A stretch of 64,000 nucleotides of DNA. Source: an uncultured Alphaproteobacteria bacterium (lineage in GTDB: Bacteria; Pseudomonadota; Alphaproteobacteria; Rs-D84). Below are positions 6,301-62,854 of the stretch, piece after piece. The first letter of the stretch is position 1, and every line of letters begins with the position of its first letter. The notes under the pieces were generated by a model. That model was not told where the DNA came from and did no database searches. It saw only the letters and a list, made by a program, of their open reading frames with translations. Location of the stretch: positions 78,005 to 142,004 of the forward strand of contig CANBCI010000002.1 in the NCBI GenBank assembly GCA_947367055.1. Direction: 5' to 3'. The position numbers and the translations under genes are program-made.

Positions 6301-9055
6301 CGACCAGATATTTTGCGGCCGAAACCCGTGTTGAAATCGTGGTGCGCACACTGTTGCCGTTTTCACCGTTGCCGCCACGCACCGTCAGATTTAATACATA
6401 TGTTCCATTGCCGATGTTGCCGTCAAAATTTACAGGTATATTGGCCATTCCATTTTCATCCGTGTACACGTCGGGTAAATCAAGTGTGATTTGCTGCGGG
6501 CGTGCCATGCTGTTTTCAGACAATCCCGTTCCGGATATAAAGTTTTCTGTAAAGCGGTATCCCTTGTATTTATCAAATGAAAATGTCACCGGGGTTAAAA
6601 CCGCGTGTGCGGATATTACGCGGTCGGCGGCCGGTGTCCCAAACATGTTGCGCAATGATACATTTGCGGTGATTTGGTCTGGGGAAATCCAGCCCTCATC
6701 GCGGGCGTCGGATATTTTTGCCGTTATTTTCAGATTGTCCGGAACAAATTCTTCGACCCGGAAATTGGTGGTTCCCAATATATCCTGGGGCTTGTTCTTG
6801 GTGTTTAGTGAATAAATGCGCACCGTGTAATCACCGATTGGCGCAGTGGCTGAAATGTCATATTTTACATCAAACATTCCGTCGGCGACGAGTGAAAACG
6901 TGCGTTCCAAAATCGTTCGGCCGCGCGCGTCGTCCATTTCCAGTTTTACCGGTACGCCGTCCAGTTCCGCAAACGATTTGTTTTTAACAATGCCGCCGAT
7001 AATCATGTTTTCACCGGGGCGGTATATGCCGCGGTCCGTGAATATATATGCGTTCATTGGAACCGCGCTGGATGAATATGCGCCGTCGGTTTCAAATTTT
7101 GAATATTCTACGCGCGTATCAAATGTGCCGTCATACGGAATGAATGAAACATCGTTCCCGCGACGCGCGACAAATGCGACGGGTTCGCGTGCGTTTTTAT
7201 ATTCAGACCATGCAAATCGTGGTATGGCGACGCGCCCGTCCGTGTCGGTTTTACCGGTCCAAATCGGATTGCCGTTTCGGCCCAAGACAGATATTTCAAC
7301 GGCGGATTCTGGTGTGCCGGCCGATAAACTGGATACAAACAGTACCGATGAACCGTCATTGTTTATTTTTCTTATTATACCCAAATCCGTCAGCAGGATC
7401 AGGCGCCGGTCGCTGTAATCTGCGTTTGAGCGGGTGCTGCCGGTTTGGACGATAAATATTCCGGTTTTATCGGCCCCGGTCTTGTCCAGATAGTCGCCCA
7501 AATCGATCGACGCATAGTTTGTCCGCTTTACGGATGCGTTTGCGAACGGCACGGTTTTTTGAAACACGACCGACATGTCATATGCGCCGAACGCCCACGA
7601 TTTGAAATCCATTGATTGCGAAAATACATTATATGTCTGCGATATAAGGTGGTTTATTTCCGACGCCTTGACTTTGTATAAATTTACATACGCGTTTTTT
7701 ACGCCCCCGCGCGCCATGATTCCAAGTTTTCTGTCCCCGCCCAGCGACAGCAATGCACCATCGCCCGCAATTTTTACGCTTTTTTCCGGATAGGGTACGC
7801 GCATCACGCGTGCGGCGGAATTTTTCAAATCAAATCCGCCCGCAGATTTTATCCCGTCGTGCACATTGACATAAATATAGCGTTCATCGCCGTCACCCGC
7901 ATCATATGCAAACGCATATTGGTATATTCCGTTTGGTGCGGCAAAGTTTATTGCATCCAATGTCAGTTTTTTTGATTTCGCGATGACGGCGTCCGTCACT
8001 TCGTCCATTTCCCATTTGTGTGTGCGCGTCTTGTCGTCGCCGTTATATTTGGGCAACAGGTATGCGTCAACATTTTTCGTCCATTGTGTGACGCGTGATG
8101 CGCCCGCCGTTGTCGTAATCAAAATCAATTGCTGGGCATTGCCGTCGTTGTCATCGGCCGCGATTGTTTGAATGTCTGAAACCCGAAAAAAATTATCAGC
8201 CGGTTCAATTGTGACCTTGGCATTGGCGGGTTTGGTTGTTGCCGTGCCGGCCGCGGCCGGTATGCGTCCGATTTTCATGCGTACGGTCTGTACGGAATCG
8301 GTAATATCAATCGGGCGGGTTGTTATGACGGCGGTGCGGTCAAATTTATCGAATTTTGCCGAAAAATCGATTTTCTTGCCATCCAGTTCCATTGAAAGCC
8401 GTGAATCAAAATTATCCGTATTGACCGAATAATTAAATGATATAACGGCGGCCGCAATTACTTTTTTGGGCGCCGCGCCGTCCGGGTAAATGTTAAAACT
8501 GTCAATCTTGGCGGTTATGTCGGGCGTTGTAAAAGAAATCCGCCGCATGTCCGGTTTGACATCGTCGTTGAATAAATTCTTGGCAATCTTTACCGTGAAC
8601 TTGGTATCCGCCGGCCAGTTTATATCCGGCGCAAATGATATTGCTCCGCCATAGACGGACCATTTCCCCTTTATAAACGGCGTGATTTTTATTCCGCGCG
8701 CAATATCCGCATCCGTCAGATTCATTTTGAACGCCGGAGTATAGGAACCGTCGGTCGCATAAGATATATATAGTTGTCGGATTGGGTTTAATTCGCGGTT
8801 GTTGTTGACGGCCGGGACATTTGCATCACCGGTCAGTATTGTTGCGTTGTCATCCCGGAATGTGGAAAAAGTTGGCGCGTCCACAGATGCGTGCAGGGAT
8901 GCCCGGGTTGCGTTTGTTTTATACCATGCAACGCCACCACCCAGGGCCAGCAGCGCCATAACCGCGGCGGCGACAAATATTGCCATGCGGCGACGCGTTT
9001 TGATTTGCCCGTTTTTATTTTTTTTGACTTTCTTTTTAACTGAATCGTGTTTCAT
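3320..9055 (-). CDS. bacterial alpha-2-macroglobulin family protein (YfhM-like), thioester-containing
   Basis: 1911 aa, N-terminal signal/anchor, CxEQ thioester motif (NCSEQ), many Ig-like/MG domain repeats; immediately upstream of pbpC. Confidence 0.8.
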   Translation of the reverse strand: MKHDSVKKKVKKNKNGQIKTRRRMAIFVAAAVMALLALGGGVAWYKTNATRASLHASVDAPTFSTFRDDNATILTGDANVPAVNNNRELNPIRQLYISYATDGSYTPAFKMNLTDADIARGIKITPFIKGKWSVYGGAISFAPDINWPADTKFTVKIAKNLFNDDVKPDMRRISFTTPDITAKIDSFNIYPDGAAPKKVIAAAVISFNYSVNTDNFDSRLSMELDGKKIDFSAKFDKFDRTAVITTRPIDITDSVQTVRMKIGRIPAAAGTATTKPANAKVTIEPADNFFRVSDIQTIAADDNDGNAQQLILITTTAGASRVTQWTKNVDAYLLPKYNGDDKTRTHKWEMDEVTDAVIAKSKKLTLDAINFAAPNGIYQYAFAYDAGDGDERYIYVNVHDGIKSAGGFDLKNSAARVMRVPYPEKSVKIAGDGALLSLGGDRKLGIMARGGVKNAYVNLYKVKASEINHLISQTYNVFSQSMDFKSWAFGAYDMSVVFQKTVPFANASVKRTNYASIDLGDYLDKTGADKTGIFIVQTGSTRSNADYSDRRLILLTDLGIIRKINNDGSSVLFVSSLSAGTPESAVEISVLGRNGNPIWTGKTDTDGRVAIPRFAWSEYKNAREPVAFVARRGNDVSFIPYDGTFDTRVEYSKFETDGAYSSSAVPMNAYIFTDRGIYRPGENMIIGGIVKNKSFAELDGVPVKLEMDDARGRTILERTFSLVADGMFDVKYDISATAPIGDYTVRIYSLNTKNKPQDILGTTNFRVEEFVPDNLKITAKISDARDEGWISPDQITANVSLRNMFGTPAADRVISAHAVLTPVTFSFDKYKGYRFTENFISGTGLSENSMARPQQITLDLPDVYTDENGMANIPVNFDGNIGNGTYVLNLTVRGGNGENGNSVRTTISTRVSAAKYLVGFHADSDLSYISKNAARRVNLVALDATATPVAANGLTKKLIRRENLTSLVKDYSGYYKYQTVTRDRIISQTGFDIKKDGAKIDLDTKNSGTYFLQILDADENILANIEYFVAGTENNALTADKSAELELKLNAADYNAGDEITVDITAPYAGAGLITIERDRVYAYKWFRANGTHTSQKIKVPANFEGTGYINVSFVRDINSRDVFTIPYAYAVAPFRANVSKRNISIKLSAPDVVRDNKLVIKYETNKSARMMIFAINTGILQVAKYKTPNPIAHFFQKAALQVETYQILSLLLPEYKVLREFARTGGGDYDGDAGELGAPLTNPFGRRINAPVAFYSGIIDTTANKPGTVEFDIPEYFNGAITVFAVAANDSSMGAAETETLVQSPVIISLAAPTKAAPGDKFEVNAVISNMTERSGTDAMVNATAHAAAPISINGAASTELSVPQGAEKLWTFGANVGDTLGGSAISVTARVMKNGKQLATRTSDATLSIRPITTFETNVKTGMLKSKSETIKKFARDMYADKESVQLLISANASVLMRPLFEYLKTYDYNCSEQLVSRAMPYALADDDAILGTTHAQSAEQISKFINELQNRQNPNGSFNMWPGGNFAPDETGAYITAYAAQFLTMARENGFNVPKNMLSRAIDYLRGYAGENIRNESDAATKAFAIYVITRNEYVTTGYIDSFEEYANKNIKNWESKLMGAYIAASYKMLKQDAHADKLFAKYEQTGHRRFEYYGPFSTSAANDAIYSYLSRKYFGANAFDIDSIREYINSGEFTPFTSAMAIMGLSGGRYDKNDITGITVFANGAPIGTNTASGTLTAQIPHGTEKIEIKCDKCARDLQLFYTIIQSGFPRAARSAENGLEIVREYFDAAGNRVTHGAIGDMITVKISVRARGGAEIVPNVVITDLLPGGLTPLEMSGDVDFYEIREDRVLIFMTATRAPREITYTAQLTAAGQFAIPPIHAASMYNPAINATGKTGETLSVSNATN

Positions 9056-9139
9056 AAATTCAAGCCTTCCTTTGTATCAAATACATATTAGAAAGCATAC
9101 AATTCAAAAACAAGCATTTATTTAGTTAAGGAGCAAAAA

Positions 9140-9757
9140 GTGGTTTATGGGTATATCCGGGTGTCGACCGACCACCAGACGACGGAAAACCAGCGGTTTG
9201 AAATTCAGAAATTTTGTGAAAAGCACGATTTGGTCATAGATTGCTGGATAGAGGAAACAATTTCTTCGACCAAGGATTTGAACAAGAGAAAACTGGGGCG
9301 ATTGCTGCGCCGTATAAAAAAGGATGATTTGATAATCGCGTCGGAGTTATCGCGCTTGGGGCGAAATCTGTTGCAGATTATGAGCATTTTGCATCATTGC
9401 ATGGATATTGGGGCCCGAATTTGGACGATAAAGGATAACTATCGCCTGGGGGCCGACATCACCAGCAAGGTTTTGGCGTTTGCCTTTGGCTTGTCCGCGG
9501 AAATCGAACGCAATTTAATTTCACAGCGAACAAAAGAGGCCTTGGCCCGTGTCAAGGCCGAAGGTGGCCGCATAGGTCGTCCGATTGGCAGCAGTAATAT
9601 TCGAAAACTGTACGGGCGCGAACAATATATCGCAAAAAAATTGCGTGCCGGCCGCAGTCGCCATGACATCGCCCGGGCTTTGCGTGTTCACCGCAATACT
9701 TTGGCCCGCTTTATTGAAGAAAACGGCATTGGTATTCAAGATGGCGAAGATTTTTGA
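9140..9757 (+). CDS. serine recombinase (resolvase/DNA invertase family) with C-terminal HTH
   Basis: GTG start with AAGGAG RBS; N-terminal catalytic motif YIRVSTDHQ (Ser nucleophile), C-terminal HTH (RSRHDIARALRVHRNTLARFI); 205 aa, typical of Hin/Gin/TnpR-size proteins. Confidence 0.7.
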   Translation: MVYGYIRVSTDHQTTENQRFEIQKFCEKHDLVIDCWIEETISSTKDLNKRKLGRLLRRIKKDDLIIASELSRLGRNLLQIMSILHHCMDIGARIWTIKDNYRLGADITSKVLAFAFGLSAEIERNLISQRTKEALARVKAEGGRIGRPIGSSNIRKLYGREQYIAKKLRAGRSRHDIARALRVHRNTLARFIEENGIGIQDGEDF

Positions 9758-36698: not shown

Positions 36699-36725
36699 AA
36701 AGTCCCCCGAACGGGGGATTTTTAA
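36699..36725 (+). terminator. bidirectional Rho-independent terminator after rho
   Basis: TCCCCCGaacGGGGGA hairpin + T-run. Confidence 0.6.
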
Positions 36726-37168
36726 TTCGTATAAAAACAATTATTGGTGAAATTATATTGGCCGCTGGTGTCATTGGCGACGGTGCCGCTGACGACATAG
36801 CAGGATGTTTTTGCCGTTGCGCCGTTGGCGGATGTTCCGGGGGCGGGGCACGGGGTGCAACCGGTGGTGCCGTTTGTTGATTGACCGTAATATCCCGCGG
36901 CGCATCGGTATGATGTTTTTCGTGTGCAGTTTAATATTGTGCCCGTTGCGGTCACTTTTTCTTGGTAGCCCGGGGTGATGCTGTTCATCCAGTCCGTGCT
37001 GACGCATTCGTCAAGTGTTGCCCCACTGCCGCATGGTTTTAGTTCGCCGGGGCATGTTTCGCCGGCCGCAACGCTTGTTCCATTGCTGCACCTGCATTGA
37101 AGGGTTGCGACACTGTGGGCCGTTGCGGGAATAAAAAGCAGTGACAGCGTCCATATATATTTTTTCAT
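36722..37168 (-). CDS. small secreted cysteine-rich protein (paralog family member A)
   Basis: Signal peptide MKKYIWTLSLLFIPATAHS; 16 Cys; C-terminal block YRCAAGYYGQSTNGTTGCTPCPAPGTSANGATAKTSCY shared with the 59248..59799 product. Confidence 0.5.
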   Translation of the reverse strand: MKKYIWTLSLLFIPATAHSVATLQCRCSNGTSVAAGETCPGELKPCGSGATLDECVSTDWMNSITPGYQEKVTATGTILNCTRKTSYRCAAGYYGQSTNGTTGCTPCPAPGTSANGATAKTSCYVVSGTVANDTSGQYNFTNNCFYTN

Positions 37169-37330
37169 CTGACTTCCTTTTTTTGTGTTCAGAAAAACAT
37201 CAAACCACCAAGTCATTGGTGGTCGGGAAGTTAGAAAAATCATAAAGAAGAATGATCCCGTCGGCCTTTGGGTGCATGTCGCGCCTTGTTGTATAACCAA
37301 CAGCTTCCCGACCGATTAAGTCGGGCAAGT
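37169..37330 (-). promoter_or_regulatory. conserved structured 5' leader, copy A (long-range stem + CACC-N-GGUGG hairpin + U-run)
   Basis: Hairpin ACCACCAagtcatTGGTGGT 37204-37223; long-range stem GTCGGGAAG 37222-37230 with CTTCCCGAC 37304-37312; immediately 5' of the minus-strand Cys-rich gene. Confidence 0.5.
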
Positions 37331-40737: not shown

Positions 40738-41136
40738 GGTTTCTCATCCTGGGGTTTGCAGAAAAATTAAACCACCCACAAGGGGGGTGGTTGAATTTTT
40801 GGCGCGCCCTGCAGATTCCCTCGGCATATAAATGCCTGCGGGGAAACCGTGACGGCTCGATTACACTGCGTTAATCTCGCCTACTTGTTTTCGAACCAAG
40901 GTTCTCATCCTGGGGTTTGCAGAAAAATTAAACCACCCACAAGGGGGGTGGTTGAATTTTTGGCGCGCCCTGCAGATTCCCTCGGCATATAAATGCCTGC
41001 GGGGAAACCGTGACGGCTCGATTACACTGCGTTAATCTCGCCTACTTGTTTTCGAACCAAGGTTCTCATCCTGGGGTTTGCAGAAAAATTAAACCACCCA
41101 CAAGGGGGGTGGTTGAATTTTTGGCGCGCCCTGCAG
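40738..41136. repeat. tandem direct repeat, 161-bp unit x ~2.5 copies, each containing the 3'-terminal 15 nt of tRNA-Arg plus its terminator (att-like)
   Basis: Units begin at 40738, 40900 and 41061, are near-identical, and each carries TGGCGCGCCCTGCAG (reverse complement of the tRNA acceptor/T-stem 3' end). The last unit runs into the genuine tRNA-Arg. Confidence 0.85.
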
Positions 41137-41198
41137 GATTCGAACCTGCGACCTGCGGATTAGAAATCCGATGCTCTATCCAGCTGGGCTAAGGGCGC
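41122..41198 (-). tRNA. tRNA-Arg (anticodon UCU)
   Basis: Reverse complement gives GCGCCCT-TA-GCCCAGCTGGATAGAGC-A-TCGGA-TTTCTAA-TCCGC-AGGTC-GCAGGTTCGAATCCTGC-AGGGCGC-G-CCA; anticodon loop UUUCUAA. Confidence 0.8.
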
Positions 41199-42597: not shown

Positions 42598-42750
42598 AGA
42601 TTGAAATTTTGGTTTATAGAGTGCATTATATACCAGAACCCTAATGGGAATTGGGTTCGGGGCTATTGCAGGCCCGGTTTAGTCGGCGCAAACGCGTCGT
42701 TAGATGATATGGCAATACATAGCCTGTATTGTCATGTCCCCGTCATGCAG

Positions 42751-42857
42751 GTCGGGGAGCTGTTGGTTATATAACACGGGAAACCGAAAGGCCGACGGAA
42801 TCACTACTAAACTGATTATGCAATCTCCCCGACCACCCTTAAATGGTGGTCTTTTTT
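42751..42857 (+). promoter_or_regulatory. conserved structured 5' leader, copy B
   Basis: GTCGGGGAG 42751-59 pairs with CTCCCCGAC 42825-33; hairpin ACCACCcttaaatGGTGGT 42832-50; T6 42852-57; 25 nt upstream of the OMP gene start. Confidence 0.5.
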
Positions 42858-42881
42858 CCCGCAATTCAAAAGGGGGATTCT

Positions 42882-43517
42882 GTGCGAATTTTTATCTGCA
42901 TGACGGTGATATTTTGCATGATGTCGCACGCGTATGCCGCCGATGGAATGTTTCTTGCATTGCGGTCTGCGCATACTAATGTCGGGGTTAAATATTCCGG
43001 GTACGGCAATCGGGACGATACCGTTTCGTCTTATAAGATTGCAATGGGGGCCGGAATTGATGCAATGGGCTTTGAATTTGAATTTTCCGATATTTCCGGT
43101 GCAAAAATGATTGCCGATTTGCAGGACGGGATTCCTTTGCGCGGCATGGAAAAAAACAATATCAACATCTATTTTTTTAACATAACCCAGGAAACGGAAA
43201 TTTTTACAGATTTTTTTATATTACTGGGGCTGGGGGCGGGCATGGCGAAAAATACCGCGGATGTCGACATAAAACTAGATTTATCCGAATTTGGCGAAAG
43301 TGATGCGTACACTGTTTATGAAAACTCGCATCATGCGCGGACGTTTGCATGGAATGTTTCAGCCGGAATTGGGTATATGATATTTGACGGATTGTCGCTG
43401 GATTTACTTTATAGATATACGGGTATTGGAAAAACAAAATATAAAATTCATTCCGACAGCATAAAAAAAAATTTAAGCATGCATGAAATAATAATCGGTG
43501 CTAGGTTTATGTTTTAA
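42882..43517 (+). CDS. small outer-membrane beta-barrel protein (OmpA-like/8-strand class)
   Basis: GTG start after AAAGGGGGA RBS; signal peptide ending AYAADG; alternating aromatic pattern; C-terminus IIGARFMF. Confidence 0.5.
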   Translation: MRIFICMTVIFCMMSHAYAADGMFLALRSAHTNVGVKYSGYGNRDDTVSSYKIAMGAGIDAMGFEFEFSDISGAKMIADLQDGIPLRGMEKNNINIYFFNITQETEIFTDFFILLGLGAGMAKNTADVDIKLDLSEFGESDAYTVYENSHHARTFAWNVSAGIGYMIFDGLSLDLLYRYTGIGKTKYKIHSDSIKKNLSMHEIIIGARFMF

Positions 43518-45697: not shown

Positions 45698-46088
45698 TCG
45701 GCACTAAATAATTCGGGGGCGGCGGCCCCCGTTTTTTATGGAAATGACCGGGTAAAAAATCTTTTGCGCAAATGTTGAAATTTTTAATAATTCGTATATA
45801 TTATATGGGCTAAACGAGTGGAATTATAAAAATTCGCGGTGCGCGCGACAAGGAGTCCAAGAATCATGGTGCTGCGCGAAGCAGCAGCGTGATGATTGGG
45901 AGTGAACGAAAGTGAACGATATGACTGCCGCAAGCATAGGGGAACAAAGTTTATGAATAAGATAAAAATTCGCGGTGCGCGCGACAAGGAGTCCAAGAAT
46001 CATGGTGCTGCGCGAAGCAGCAGCGTGATGATTGGGAGTGAACGAAAGTGAACGATATGACTGCCGCAAGCATAGGGGAACAAAGTTT

Positions 46089-48944
<2,856 letters not shown>

Positions 48945-58670: not shown

Positions 58671-58810
58671 TGTTTTTACTCCTTTTTTCGTCAATGAAAA
58701 ACCACCGAAAAAATTCAGGTGGCTGGAGTTTAGTAACAATTCATCAGAAAATTGCGCGGCTTATTTGGCGCAAACAGCGTGTGCTTTATTCGCCGCACTC
58801 CAGCCACTTT
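58671..58810 (-). promoter_or_regulatory. conserved structured 5' leader, copy C
   Basis: Hairpin CCACCgaaaaaattcaGGTGG 58702-22; CTGGAG 58723-28 pairs with CTCCAGCC 58799-58806 (covarying version of the long-range stem); 5' of the minus-strand OMP gene. Confidence 0.5.
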
Positions 58811-59138
58811 CGTGCTCTGGAGGGTATTATGCGCCATCTCTGGCGTCTGATGATATGGGTTACTAAGCCCAACGACAAGAATCCTGCCCCTGTCGTCGCG
58901 ATATATTAAATCATTGCGTTGTGCAAAAGTCAATTTTTATATTTGTTTTTTGTGTGCCGGGTTGTGGCGGCTGCGGATTGCGGTTGCATTGATTGGTTTT
59001 ATATGGTAAACTAAAAAGCGTTGACGGGTGTTCCGTCGACGGGGTGTGGAAACCCTTCGTAAGCGTCGAATTTGTTCCTGTGGCGCGCAATTTGCGCCAA
59101 TTTTAACATATTCGATGAAAATTACTCCTGGCCATTGG

Positions 59139-59227
59139 GTCGGGAGGGTCGCCGAATATAATAATACGCGACACGATTCTTACGATTGTTTCCAACCTCC
59201 CGACCACCAATAGAATTGGTGGTTTTT
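59139..59227 (+). promoter_or_regulatory. conserved structured 5' leader, copy D
   Basis: GTCGGGAGG 59139-47 pairs with CCTCCCGAC 59196-204; hairpin CCACCAAtagaaTTGGTGG 59204-22; T5 59223-27; 20 nt upstream of ATG 59248. Confidence 0.5.
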
Positions 59228-59247
59228 GCAAAACAAGGGTGGGAAGC

Positions 59248-59799
59248 ATGAGAAAAATATTTGTCCTGGGTATTTTTATAATCGGCGTGAATGCGGCGTT
59301 TGCAGCGGAGGAATGTCCAAACTGCCTGAATTTTAAGCCGGCGCATTGCGCCAATTACAATGTAAAGGTGGCGCCAAATTACGTTGATCATTTTTATGAC
59401 TGCACAACTTGTGATTCCGGTTATAAGATTGCGTTTGATTATGTGGAAACCGGTGACGATATTATGCCCACGATGAGTTATGGTTATTGCGTAGAGGACT
59501 GCAAGGGGTGTACGAACTGTAATGATATTGGGTGGACTGTGGCAAATGCCGGCTATCACGTCTATAAAACCGCTAGTTGCAAATGCAATACGTGCGTGTA
59601 CACCAGCAAATACAGGTGTGCCGGAAACTATTTCGGCAGTTCTACAAATGGTACCAGCGGATGTTCGCCATGTCCGGAGGGTGGATTGTCGGCGCCGGGC
59701 TCAACCGCAAAAACGGCCTGTTACAAACCGGCCGGGTCAACGGGCGCGGATTCCTCCGGGTCTTATACATATACCGGCACATGTGTTTGGCAAAATTAA
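59248..59799 (+). CDS. small secreted cysteine-rich protein (paralog family member D)
   Basis: Signal peptide MRKIFVLGIFIIGVNAAFA; 20 Cys; C-terminal block YRCAGNYFGSSTNGTSGCSPCPEGGLSAPGSTAKTACY paralogous to the 36722..37168 product. Confidence 0.5.
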   Translation: MRKIFVLGIFIIGVNAAFAAEECPNCLNFKPAHCANYNVKVAPNYVDHFYDCTTCDSGYKIAFDYVETGDDIMPTMSYGYCVEDCKGCTNCNDIGWTVANAGYHVYKTASCKCNTCVYTSKYRCAGNYFGSSTNGTSGCSPCPEGGLSAPGSTAKTACYKPAGSTGADSSGSYTYTGTCVWQN

Positions 59800-62499: not shown

Positions 62500-62620
62500 G
62501 ATAAAATCCTCCGTTATGCTTGTTAATAAAAACCACCGTAAAATCAGGTGGTTGGAGGTTCGAAACTATAATCTGGTATAGCGGGTTTATTCGTTTGATA
62601 TTACACCCCCTCCAACCTAT
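62500..62620 (-). promoter_or_regulatory. conserved structured 5' leader, copy E
   Basis: Hairpin CCACCgtaaaatcaGGTGG 62533-51; GTTGGAGGTT 62551-60 pairs with CCTCCAACC 62609-17 (covarying stem); A-run 62526-32 gives U-run in gene orientation. Confidence 0.5.
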
Positions 62621-62854
62621 TTTCAGATTGGAGTTTTGTTTTTATATCCGCTTTGTCGGATATCCAGATTCAGAGGTTTCGACGCCCCAATGCAAAAACA
62701 CTTCGCATCAGTCAAAGTATAGCGCATTTCTTGATTGTTAATCAAGGATATAATGCAAATCCAATGGGATTTGTTATATAAAACGCTTGAATTTATGCGC
62801 GATTATGTCTAAAGTCATCATTGATTTAATTTTTTTAACCCATAGGAATAAAAA

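Follow-up and report, generated by a model that had tools for sequence, protein, structure and literature searches.

The 64,000-nucleotide (nt) stretch analysed here, which we call the window, comes from an uncultured alphaproteobacterium (assembly GCA_947367055.1, contig CANBCI010000002.1, positions 78,005 to 142,004). It carries five copies, c1 to c5, of a structured element in front of genes for envelope proteins (Table 1). In each case the gene is co-oriented, its start codon lies 20–35 nt downstream and its product is a signal-peptide protein. The copies lie where an initial annotation of the window had placed them, and the architecture that it described can be read in all five: a G-rich strand, its exact complement 48–73 nt further on, a CCACC-N-GGUGG hairpin, a U-run, and then a Shine–Dalgarno (SD) site and start codon. 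Exactly five copies were found by a full-sensitivity covariance scan of the 64 kb with the filters off, the next match scoring 17 bits. Both outer-membrane protein assignments are supported by Pfam (OMP_b-brl, OmpA_membrane), while the three Cys-rich proteins belong to no Pfam family and have N-termini that look signal-peptide-like by eye. The element, a leader RNA, probably acts as an on/off switch for these surface-protein genes.

Table 1. Positions of the leader copies and their parts in the window, and of related features in other loci (L numbers are locus identifiers)
Feature	Position	Strand	Details
c1 core	37313..37200	-	P1 GGUCGGGAAG/CUUCCCGACC
c1 elements	segment A 37325-37320; P1 3′ strand 37230-37221; T2 37222-37205	-	segment A CCCGAC
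c1 gene	SD 37177-37173; ATG 37168; gene 37168-36722	-	SD GGAAG; 148-aa Cys-rich protein
c2 core	42750..42854	+	P1 GGUCGGGGAG/CUCCCCGACC
c2 elements	segment A 42737-42742; P1 3′ strand 42825-42834; T2 42833-42849	+	segment A UCCCCG
c2 gene	SD 42872-42877; GTG 42882; gene 42882-43517	+	SD GGGGGA; outer-membrane beta-barrel, Pfam OMP_b-brl
c3 core	58806..58697	-	P1 (GU)GGCUGGAG/CUCCAGCC(AC)
c3 elements	segment A 58822-58817	-	segment A CUCCAG; three-way junction, T2 and U-run
c3 gene	SD 58682-58679; ATG 58670; gene 58670-57921	-	SD GGAG; OmpA-like beta-barrel, Pfam OMP_b-brl and OmpA_membrane
c4 core	59138..59227	+	P1 GGUCGGGAGG/CCUCCCGACC
c4 core elements	P1 5′ strand 59138-59147; P2 and P3 59148-59189; J3/1 59190-59195; P1 3′ strand 59196-59205	+	J3/1 UUCCAA
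c4 T2 hairpin	59204-59222; U-run 59223-59227	+	CCACCAAUAGAAUUGGUGG
c4 gene	SD region (segment D) within 59235..59250; ATG 59248; gene 59248-59799	+	segment D AAGGGUGGGAAG; 183-aa Cys-rich signal-peptide protein
c4 putative sigma-70-type promoter	58984..59012	+	TTGCAT, 17 nt, TAAACT; by sequence reading
c4 upstream module	59013..59137	+	R3 99.4 bits
c4 H-a, predicted 5′-terminal hairpin		+	GACGG-GUGUU-CCGUC
c4 H-b hairpin		+	GGGG-UGUGGAAA-CCC
c4 box around H-c		+	GCGUCGAAU pairs with AUUCGAUG around GC hairpin H-c (GGCGCGC..GCGCC)
H-c	59087-59104, and equivalent site in 51 relatives	+	
c4 segment A	59125-59133	+	CUCCUGGCC; complementary to P1 5′ strand
c5 core	62617..62528	-	P1 GGUUGGAGG/CCUCCAACC
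c5 elements	segment A 62633-62626; P1 3′ strand 62558-62550; T2 62551-62533	-	segment A CUCCAAUC
c5 gene	SD 62512-62508; ATG 62499; gene 62499-62020	-	SD GGAGG; 159-aa secreted protein
c5 upstream module and promoter-like sequence	62621..62745; R3 match 62716-62621; promoter 62745-62716	-	TTGATT-18-TATACT; R3 39.6 bits
XRE-type helix-turn-helix genes	L033:16670-16894	+	
	L025:16306-16530	-	
	L024:15120-15344	-	
	L027:12721-12945	-	
	L071:12540-12761	+	
Tandem leader pairs	L051:13402-13753	-	
	L035:10616-10966	-	
	L048:13517-13949	+	
	L056:11674-11980	-	
Phage sRNA-Xcc1-type elements	L113:1498-1598, Stx2a-converting phage		directly upstream of antirepressor gene
	L114:1504-1603, Bordetella phage		directly upstream of antirepressor gene
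	L104:5494-5590, IMG/VR (pro)phage contig		directly upstream of antirepressor gene (P22_AR_N)

The minimum free energy (MFE) folds of all five copies agree on a core that consists of a three-way junction of helices P1, P2 and P3, followed by a weak hairpin with a U-run (T2). P1 runs directly into P2, the loop of which (L2) is A/U-rich with a conserved AUA...AAUA; P3 follows at once, and a linker of 6–7 nt ending in AAC (J3/1) leads to the 3′ strand of P1. What had been taken for a loop of 48–73 nt is therefore, in the fold common to all five, two hairpins. The fold energy is better than that of all 200 shuffled sequences for four of the copies (z of −3.4, −3.3, −3.7 and −4.1 for c1 to c4), and is weaker against shuffles for c5 (z of −1.6). 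When a covariance model is trained solely on the c4 lineage, it detects the remaining four copies with E values of 4e-4 to 1e-6. The c4 core scores 115 bits with model R1 and 97 bits with model R2, and R2 gives 60.9 bits for c1, 57.9–58 for c2, 61.7 for c3 and 64.9 for c5. The hairpin pattern CCACC-N5-12-GGTGGT gives 15 strand-matches on the two strands of the window against 0.16 expected; these represent eight sites, five in the leaders and three that are a single terminator recurring in tandem repeats beside tRNA-Arg.

For the Cys-rich protein encoded behind c4, a large protein database contains only four homologues. An alignment of its family drew 78 loci from genome collections, all of them from uncultured gut Alphaproteobacteria, namely Candidatus Enterousia and ‘Rickettsiales’ metagenome-assembled genomes (MAGs) from chicken, deer, termite and mouse. 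The literature assigns Ca. Enterousia to the order Rs-D84, with genomes of less than 1 Mb (PMC12306168). Since the loci were chosen through the Cys-rich protein, the downstream gene set is biased toward such proteins. R2 gave 135 matches in this 1.3 Mb of sequence, of which 124 distinct copies were left after duplicates, weak and reverse-strand matches had been dropped; the density in the sampled loci is about one copy per 10 kb. The copies fall into at least four or five pairing classes, namely CAGGAG, UGGAG, CGGGAGG, CGGGGAG and CGGGAAG.

The search of relatives with a covariance model, which the initial annotation had proposed as a check, thus yielded ~124 further distinct copies in which the covariation is kept. 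In the core alignment of 130 distinct sequences, which was fitted to the model and so favours the structure, pairing is present in 94.8% of 3265 cells, both sides change in 23 of the 26 pairs, and compensatory cells number 564 as against 144 in shuffles. As a control, sliding one strand of the same alignment cuts pairing to 30–55%. RNAalifold, applied to a plain MAFFT alignment of 42 copies of all classes, recovered only four P1 pairs because the P1 classes are there misaligned in register, and the whole-core statistics therefore rest on the model-fitted alignments. The T2 stem also covaries (CCACC/GGUGG, CCGCC/GGCGG, CCGUC/GACGG, CCAUC/GAUGG), and the unpaired nucleotides of L2 and J3/1 are conserved, including in the phage relatives described below. 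The element is a real, selected, multi-domain leader RNA, and the earlier view of it as a selected RNA structure rather than a random DNA repeat holds across the 130 distinct sequences.

An open reading frame (ORF) of at least 60 amino acids (aa) starts 15–40 nt after the match in 98 of the 130 copies, compared with 19% of random positions, and nearly every copy has a recognisable SD site. The element keeps a constant place and direction with respect to the gene, as had been claimed. These data bear on whether the element might instead act at the DNA level, as a mobile repeat like a miniature inverted-repeat transposable element (MITE) or as a recombination site such as an integron attC. The many copies would fit such a role, as would the inverted repeat formed by P1 and the first finding of a related RNA, sRNA-Xcc1, in an integron cassette. 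Neither the fixed orientation nor the fixed distance to the start codon is expected of it, however; no target-site duplications flank the copies, and the direct copy of one P1 strand that lies upstream (segment A) is 10–16 nt off, not adjacent. Because the stems covary between copies within one genome, pairing fits the data and a protein-recognised DNA site does not, and because G-U pairs are tolerated on one strand only (e.g. GGUCGGGUUG/CUUCCCGACC), the selected molecule is RNA and not duplex DNA. We find a DNA-level element barely credible. Two specific candidates of this kind were rejected. For attC, the main class (GGUCAGGAGG/CCUCCUGACC) lacks the core sites in their required order, RYYYAAC...GTTRRRY, and the element is upstream of its gene; a MITE or Correia-like repeat is contradicted by the co-orientation, the spacing to the start codon and the lack of flanking duplication. 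The Correia and ERIC (enterobacterial repetitive intergenic consensus) repeats resemble the leader in being multi-copy intergenic inverted repeats in 5′ untranslated regions (UTRs) that are transcribed together with adjacent genes and can carry promoters, whereas the leader differs from them in its fixed orientation and register, compensatory changes, strand-specific G-U pairs and lack of a target-site duplication.

Most products behind the leaders in the related loci are Cys-rich proteins with a signal peptide and no Pfam family. The leader also flanks genes for outer-membrane barrels, a YadA-anchor adhesin, a PAP2 protein, a UvrD-like helicase and, repeatedly, a ~75-aa XRE-type helix-turn-helix (HTH) protein. 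The initial annotation had envisaged a purely envelope regulon; with small XRE-type regulators, the helicase and the PAP2 protein among the genes preceded, the downstream set consists mostly, not solely, of envelope proteins. P0004, a distant homologue of the Cys-rich protein, has no leader upstream.

Three observations on these downstream genes and leader arrangements can be added. The secreted Cys-rich family (window 36722-37168(-) and 59248-59799(+); loci L012-L089) has more than 100 relatives in gut alphaproteobacterial MAGs, several per genome. Its C-terminal module, YRCAAGYYG..NG.SGC..CP..G.S.AG.T..T.CY..G...D..G.Y.Y...C.Y, matches no Pfam family, and its Cys spacing recalls eukaryotic furin/ephrin-receptor-like Cys repeats. 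The XRE-type HTH protein (MAKLLIDANYYGN.MR.ARQHL.IS..DAA.LLKM.KKDY..CER) is repeatedly preceded by a leader of the UGGAG class, and in L033 its gene adjoins clpP; the protein might act as a regulator within the leader system. Finally, four tandem pairs of leaders were seen, with the two copies 170–330 nt apart and no ORF behind the first copy, an arrangement which recalls the five clustered sRNA-Xcc1 homologues of Xylella (PMC12189769).

At the Rfam gathering threshold, only two tRNAs were found in the window, and only tRNAs in seven related loci. In E-value mode, sRNA-Xcc1 (RF02221) was the only recurring non-tRNA family, with 42.0 bits for c5 (E 3.6e-5), 37.4 for c4 and 35.4 for c1, c2 and c3 not being reported; in three related loci, three of the 11 copies matched with 42.5, 37.6 and 34.3 bits. 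The alignments span model positions 1–87 with all three helices, and the architecture of the family is present: P1 around two adjacent hairpins, the J3/1 linker and the CaCC tail. As these scores of 34–42.5 bits compare with a gathering score of 53 bits, we treat the element as a divergent sister group of sRNA-Xcc1 and not as a member; being below the threshold, the copies are missed by standard annotation pipelines. The initial annotation had not recognised the element as a known riboswitch class, and no Rfam riboswitch family matches the window copies, but it had passed over this sub-threshold relative. The leader is a new, greatly expanded variant of the orphan sRNA-Xcc1 kind.

Both RNAs have a G-rich/C-rich P1 of 9–10 base pairs (bp), a P2 with an AAUA..AAUA loop, a P3, a J3/1 of 6–7 nt and a P1 3′ strand followed by ACC. 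Unlike sRNA-Xcc1, the leader is AT-rich, always has a U-run after T2, and forms part of a ~230-nt leader with extra hairpins; it lies among chromosomal housekeeping genes (hisS, prfA, leuS) rather than in an integron or prophage, and it precedes genes for secreted and outer-membrane proteins in greatly multiplied form. The family was first described in Xanthomonas campestris, where it was annotated as a trans-acting small RNA (sRNA) and seen as a single ~100-nt band with mapped ends 88 nt apart (PMC2996969). It has since been found upstream of symE in integron cassettes (bioRxiv 10.1101/2025.06.18.660453), upstream of an ORF6N gene in an APSE phage (bioRxiv 10.1101/2020.03.17.996009), as 15 copies in Aeromonas salmonicida (PMC8780938), as seven expressed homologues in Xylella (PMC12189769), and in some Shiga toxin-producing Escherichia coli (STEC) strains (PMC12370729).

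Relatives in phages and Aeromonas were reached by a main-class pattern scan together with R2 and BLAST. R2, although trained on the present lineage only, matches GC-rich elements in Stx2a phage TL-2011c (36.8 bits), Aeromonas caviae (45.8), an IMG/VR contig (42.8; L104) and a Bordetella phage (26.7), all of which by eye closely resemble the Rfam sRNA-Xcc1 consensus. An antirepressor gene lies 25–50 nt downstream in the three of these with the gene identified (the IMG/VR contig and the Stx2a and Bordetella phages), the Aeromonas record being unannotated there. This suggests that RNAs of the sRNA-Xcc1 family generally serve as leaders for antirepressor genes of phages. A scan of viral contigs for exact P1 patterns gave five chance inverted repeats with no Rfam match, and BLAST of the Rfam sRNA-Xcc1 consensus against plasmids gave nothing useful. 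SymE-encoding plasmid loci contain SymR/isrA-type RNAs and no RF02221. On the small enterobacterial plasmids concerned (L090:1147-1914, L091:4500-5336 and 8586-9326), genes for an HTH regulator and a SymE toxin occur in pairs, with SymR-like antisense RNAs across the symE start that score 52–54 bits against a cut-off of 61.

In c4 the motif forms the 3′ half of a leader of ~230 nt from the predicted start to the ATG. Among 60 aligned main-class leaders, a near-consensus promoter (cTTG-N17-TATAAT) lies ~8 nt before a 5′-terminal hairpin, from which transcription of the leader would begin; the promoter is followed in order by H-a (9 bp), the small H-b (loop UGUGAGAA) and a composite hairpin formed by pairing of the box GCGUCGGAAUA with UAUUACGACG, which together enclose the GC-rich stem H-c. 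These upstream helices are 96% paired, with compensatory changes in 19 of 24 pairs, in a plain MAFFT alignment that was not fitted to structure. A model of the upstream module (R3) gave 81 matches, 79 of which abut a core match. By P1 class, it covers 55 of 55 main-class copies, 16 of 29 in the UGGAG class and none of the 33 in the CGGGnnG classes. Within the window R3 matches c4 and c5; c1 and c3 have analogous hairpins by eye. The aligned copies, when read between P3 and the SD site, show no conserved promoter. Three other readings of the c4 region were discarded. A leader peptide encoded by a 32-codon ORF (ATG 59115 to TAG 59213, in the T2 loop) has ACG for its ATG in most relatives, and its frame closes early in L023. 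A promoter inside c4 (TTTCCA-16-TAGAAT) would have its −10 in the variable T2 loop, where it is not conserved. An extracytoplasmic function (ECF) or sigma-54 promoter at the GCGTCGAAA box has the wrong spacing, and the box belongs to the H-b or H-cd stem.

The full leader contains pairings that compete with the core. Segment A, 10–16 nt upstream of P1, is identical in sequence to the 3′ strand of P1 (segment C) and is therefore complementary to the P1 5′ strand (segment B). The SD region (segment D) is similar to B, and its complementarity to A and C is class-specific, the pairings with the SD being CAGGAG/CUCCUG, (U)GGAG(G)/CCUCCA, GGAAG/CUUCC and GGGG(A)/CUCCCC. The best A:B Watson–Crick helix has a mean of 6.2 within a copy versus 4.0 across P1 classes, and the best C:D helix 4.9 versus 3.9; the class-by-class matrices for both peak on the diagonal. 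When the stretch between the start codon and a point 30 nt upstream of P1 was folded for 98 copies, the two predicted folds were near-isoenergetic, with means of −47.9 kcal/mol for A:B with C:D and −46.3 kcal/mol for P1 with A:D. Unconstrained MFE folds contain A:B in 59 of these copies and P1 in 37.

T2 has the form of an intrinsic terminator, a hairpin with G+C and a U-run immediately after it, though a weak one. All 111 scorable copies have at least five U in the next 8 nt. The stem is short, with a mean of 6.8 bp and a ΔG of −8.4 kcal/mol, which falls to −2.7 kcal/mol without the outer CC:GG pairs. The outer CC of T2 consists of the last two bases of P1, and stays in P1 when the core is folded alone. 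In silico, then, mutually exclusive pairings link P1 to the terminator and the SD: A:B against B:C, the CC common to P1 and T2, and C:D on the SD. The initial proposal of an attenuator-type expression platform appears plausible from these predictions, given that T2 always comes with a U-run and depends on two G-C pairs that also belong to P1.

We favour the view, to which we give a probability of about one half, that the leader is a cis-acting bistable attenuator and ribosome-binding-site mask for its own gene. According to this model, a c4 leader transcribed from its sigma-70-type promoter would carry A, B, C and D, of which A and C are C-rich and anti-SD-like, B and D are G-rich, and D is the real SD. 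In fold I, A would pair with B once both had been made, leaving C free; T2 could then complete its stem against the U-run and cause intrinsic termination, and in transcripts that escaped, C would pair with D and hide the ribosome-binding site. In fold II, C would displace A on B to form P1 of the three-way junction. P1 would thereby take the two C residues that T2 needs, so that T2 would drop from about −8.4 to −2.7 kcal/mol and be set back from the U-run, allowing read-through. The junction and the L2 loop (AAUA..AAUA, with J3/1 ..AAC) would be the likely docking site of an effector, which might be a small molecule, an ion or an RNA-binding protein.

The same complementarities could serve a discrete small RNA that acts in trans, terminated or processed at T2, with a free anti-SD segment (A or C) that represses its own mRNA and sibling mRNAs of the same class. 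Cross-repression within each class would then link the many surface-protein genes; sRNA-Xcc1 was first described as an RNA of this sort, and the c4 RNA of phages P1 and P7, compared below, is similar. T2 and its U-run are the usual 3′ end of a bacterial sRNA, either fold leaves one anti-SD-like segment free in a short transcript, and A and C match D in a class-specific manner; copies with no ORF behind, or in tandem, would also suit such a gene. sRNA-Xcc1 itself appears as a discrete band (PMC2996969), and the Xylella homologues are expressed (PMC12189769). A gene acting in trans, however, has no need of the constant spacing to SD and start codon kept in about 75–90% of copies, and no target beyond the element's own family is evident. 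Moreover, lacking its own promoter, the downstream gene can be transcribed only by read-through, which counts against a pure trans-acting sRNA. We regard this explanation as doubtful, while noting that most of the data would fit a trans role, which may exist alongside a cis role, the two not being mutually exclusive.

Several observations weigh against the bistable attenuator. The stem sequences of P1 and P3 are far better conserved than the downstream proteins, unlike those of most riboswitch aptamers, and no metabolic hint of a ligand comes from the genes behind the leader, whose products are envelope proteins and HTH regulators. P1 and T2 share no more than 2 nt. With only about five classes, shared descent may explain part of the C:D signal, and a long-range A:D helix showed, as a separate selected pairing, no excess over within-class permutations. 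Some six to eight copies have no ORF behind them or are in tandem. The phage relatives keep the CCACC..GGUGG hairpin without a U-run, which means that the hairpin must have some other function, either alone or in addition. H-c is itself terminator-like, with a mean ΔG of −7.6 kcal/mol and at least five U in the next 10 nt in 88% of copies, so that the long leaders may hold two attenuators in series. Lastly, about 8 of the 12 bases of the SD window are paired in both predicted folds, with C in one and with A in the other, and a clear translational ON state is therefore missing.

This last point would be expected of a constitutive structural 5′ UTR that does not switch, but stabilises the mRNA and sets a low, fixed translation of abundant envelope proteins, with T2 as a leaky insulator. 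The E. coli ompA 5′ UTR stabilises its mRNA through a 5′-terminal hairpin and compact folds. H-a stands at the predicted 5′ end of the leader in a comparable manner, and the promoter, being near consensus, looks constitutive. The host genome is reduced and has few regulators (PMC12306168). Such a UTR would leave unexplained why A duplicates C, why the two folds are kept near-isoenergetic, why P1 overlaps exactly those T2 pairs that lie beside the U-run, and why unpaired nucleotides of L2 and J3/1 are conserved in common with the phage relatives. We think it quite unlikely that the leader has no more than this structural role.

The leader can be compared with two kinds of known regulatory RNA. 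The c4 antisense RNA of phages P1 and P7 (immI; Rfam RF01695), the name of which is independent of our copy c4, is a structured RNA in the leader of the transcript that it regulates; it is processed by RNase P and acts through Rho-dependent polarity. It resembles the present leader in having short exposed segments complementary to a downstream ribosome-binding region, with variant pairs as specificity classes, and it is associated with antirepressor genes, as are the sRNA-Xcc1 relatives. In contrast to c4 RNA, the leader has an intrinsic terminator, and its masking segments either belong to the P1 helix or repeat it; the leader shows no sequence or structural similarity to c4, the Rfam C4 model having no match in the window. 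One sRNA-Xcc1 copy of Xylella is a neighbour of C4 and isrK (PMC12189769). As in the purine class of terminator-coupled riboswitches, P1 of the leader closes a three-way junction with conserved junction and loop nucleotides, and the terminator uses its 3′ strand; as with c-di-GMP-I riboswitches, there are many copies per genome, located before surface-protein genes. In contrast to three-way-junction riboswitches, the leader has strongly conserved stems, an extra anti-P1 segment upstream, and a terminator overlap of 2 nt.

Two repeats elsewhere in the window contain terminator-like hairpins. A 161-nt unit is repeated 2.5 times with 99% identity directly after tRNA-Arg(tct) (window 40741-41141; tRNA-Arg 41122-41198 (-)). 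On the minus strand, each unit comprises a ~115-nt segment that ends in the 3′-terminal 15 nt of the tRNA, CUGCAGGGCGCGCCA, and then a terminator, CCACCCCCCUUGUGGGUGG-UUU. No Rfam family matches the unit, and an unrelated metagenome contig (L010:118-290) has a related sequence directly behind another tRNA. The array may represent a small RNA linked to the tRNA, or what repeated integration left behind. The second is a perfect 136-nt tandem repeat of 2.2 copies at 100% identity (window 45826-46120), which overlaps the first ~90 nt of a 970-aa ORF starting at 46032; each unit has a terminator-like hairpin, UCGCGCGCACCGCGA, with a U-run on the minus strand.

sRNA-Xcc1 is an orphan family of plant, fish and human pathogens and their phages that has no known mechanism. 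The ~124 divergent copies provide far more covariation than was available before for RNAs of this type, and the combination of an anti-P1 segment, a P1/terminator overlap and SD masking may also apply to the leaders of phage antirepressor and symE genes. A much bolder reading, which we hold to be very unlikely, is that the leaders constitute a new class of riboregulator gating much of the secretome of these reduced-genome gut symbionts, with terminated leaders doubling as class-specific anti-SD RNAs on sibling mRNAs. If true, it could cover 5–10% of all genes, by extrapolation, and the pairing classes would form a network like the ‘immunity groups’ of c4, so that expression of the Cys-rich surface proteins would be mutually exclusive or variable, an RNA-based antigenic variation in bacteria. 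A weaker corollary would be that sRNA-Xcc1 RNAs in general are primarily leaders acting in cis and not free-standing sRNAs.

The Candidatus Enterousia relatives, with genomes of under 1 Mb, lack the usual transporters and are probably dependent on contacts with other cells (PMC12306168), which makes surface proteins central to how they live. A single RNA leader seems to precede a large fraction of their surface-protein genes, and it may be the organism's main lever on its surface.

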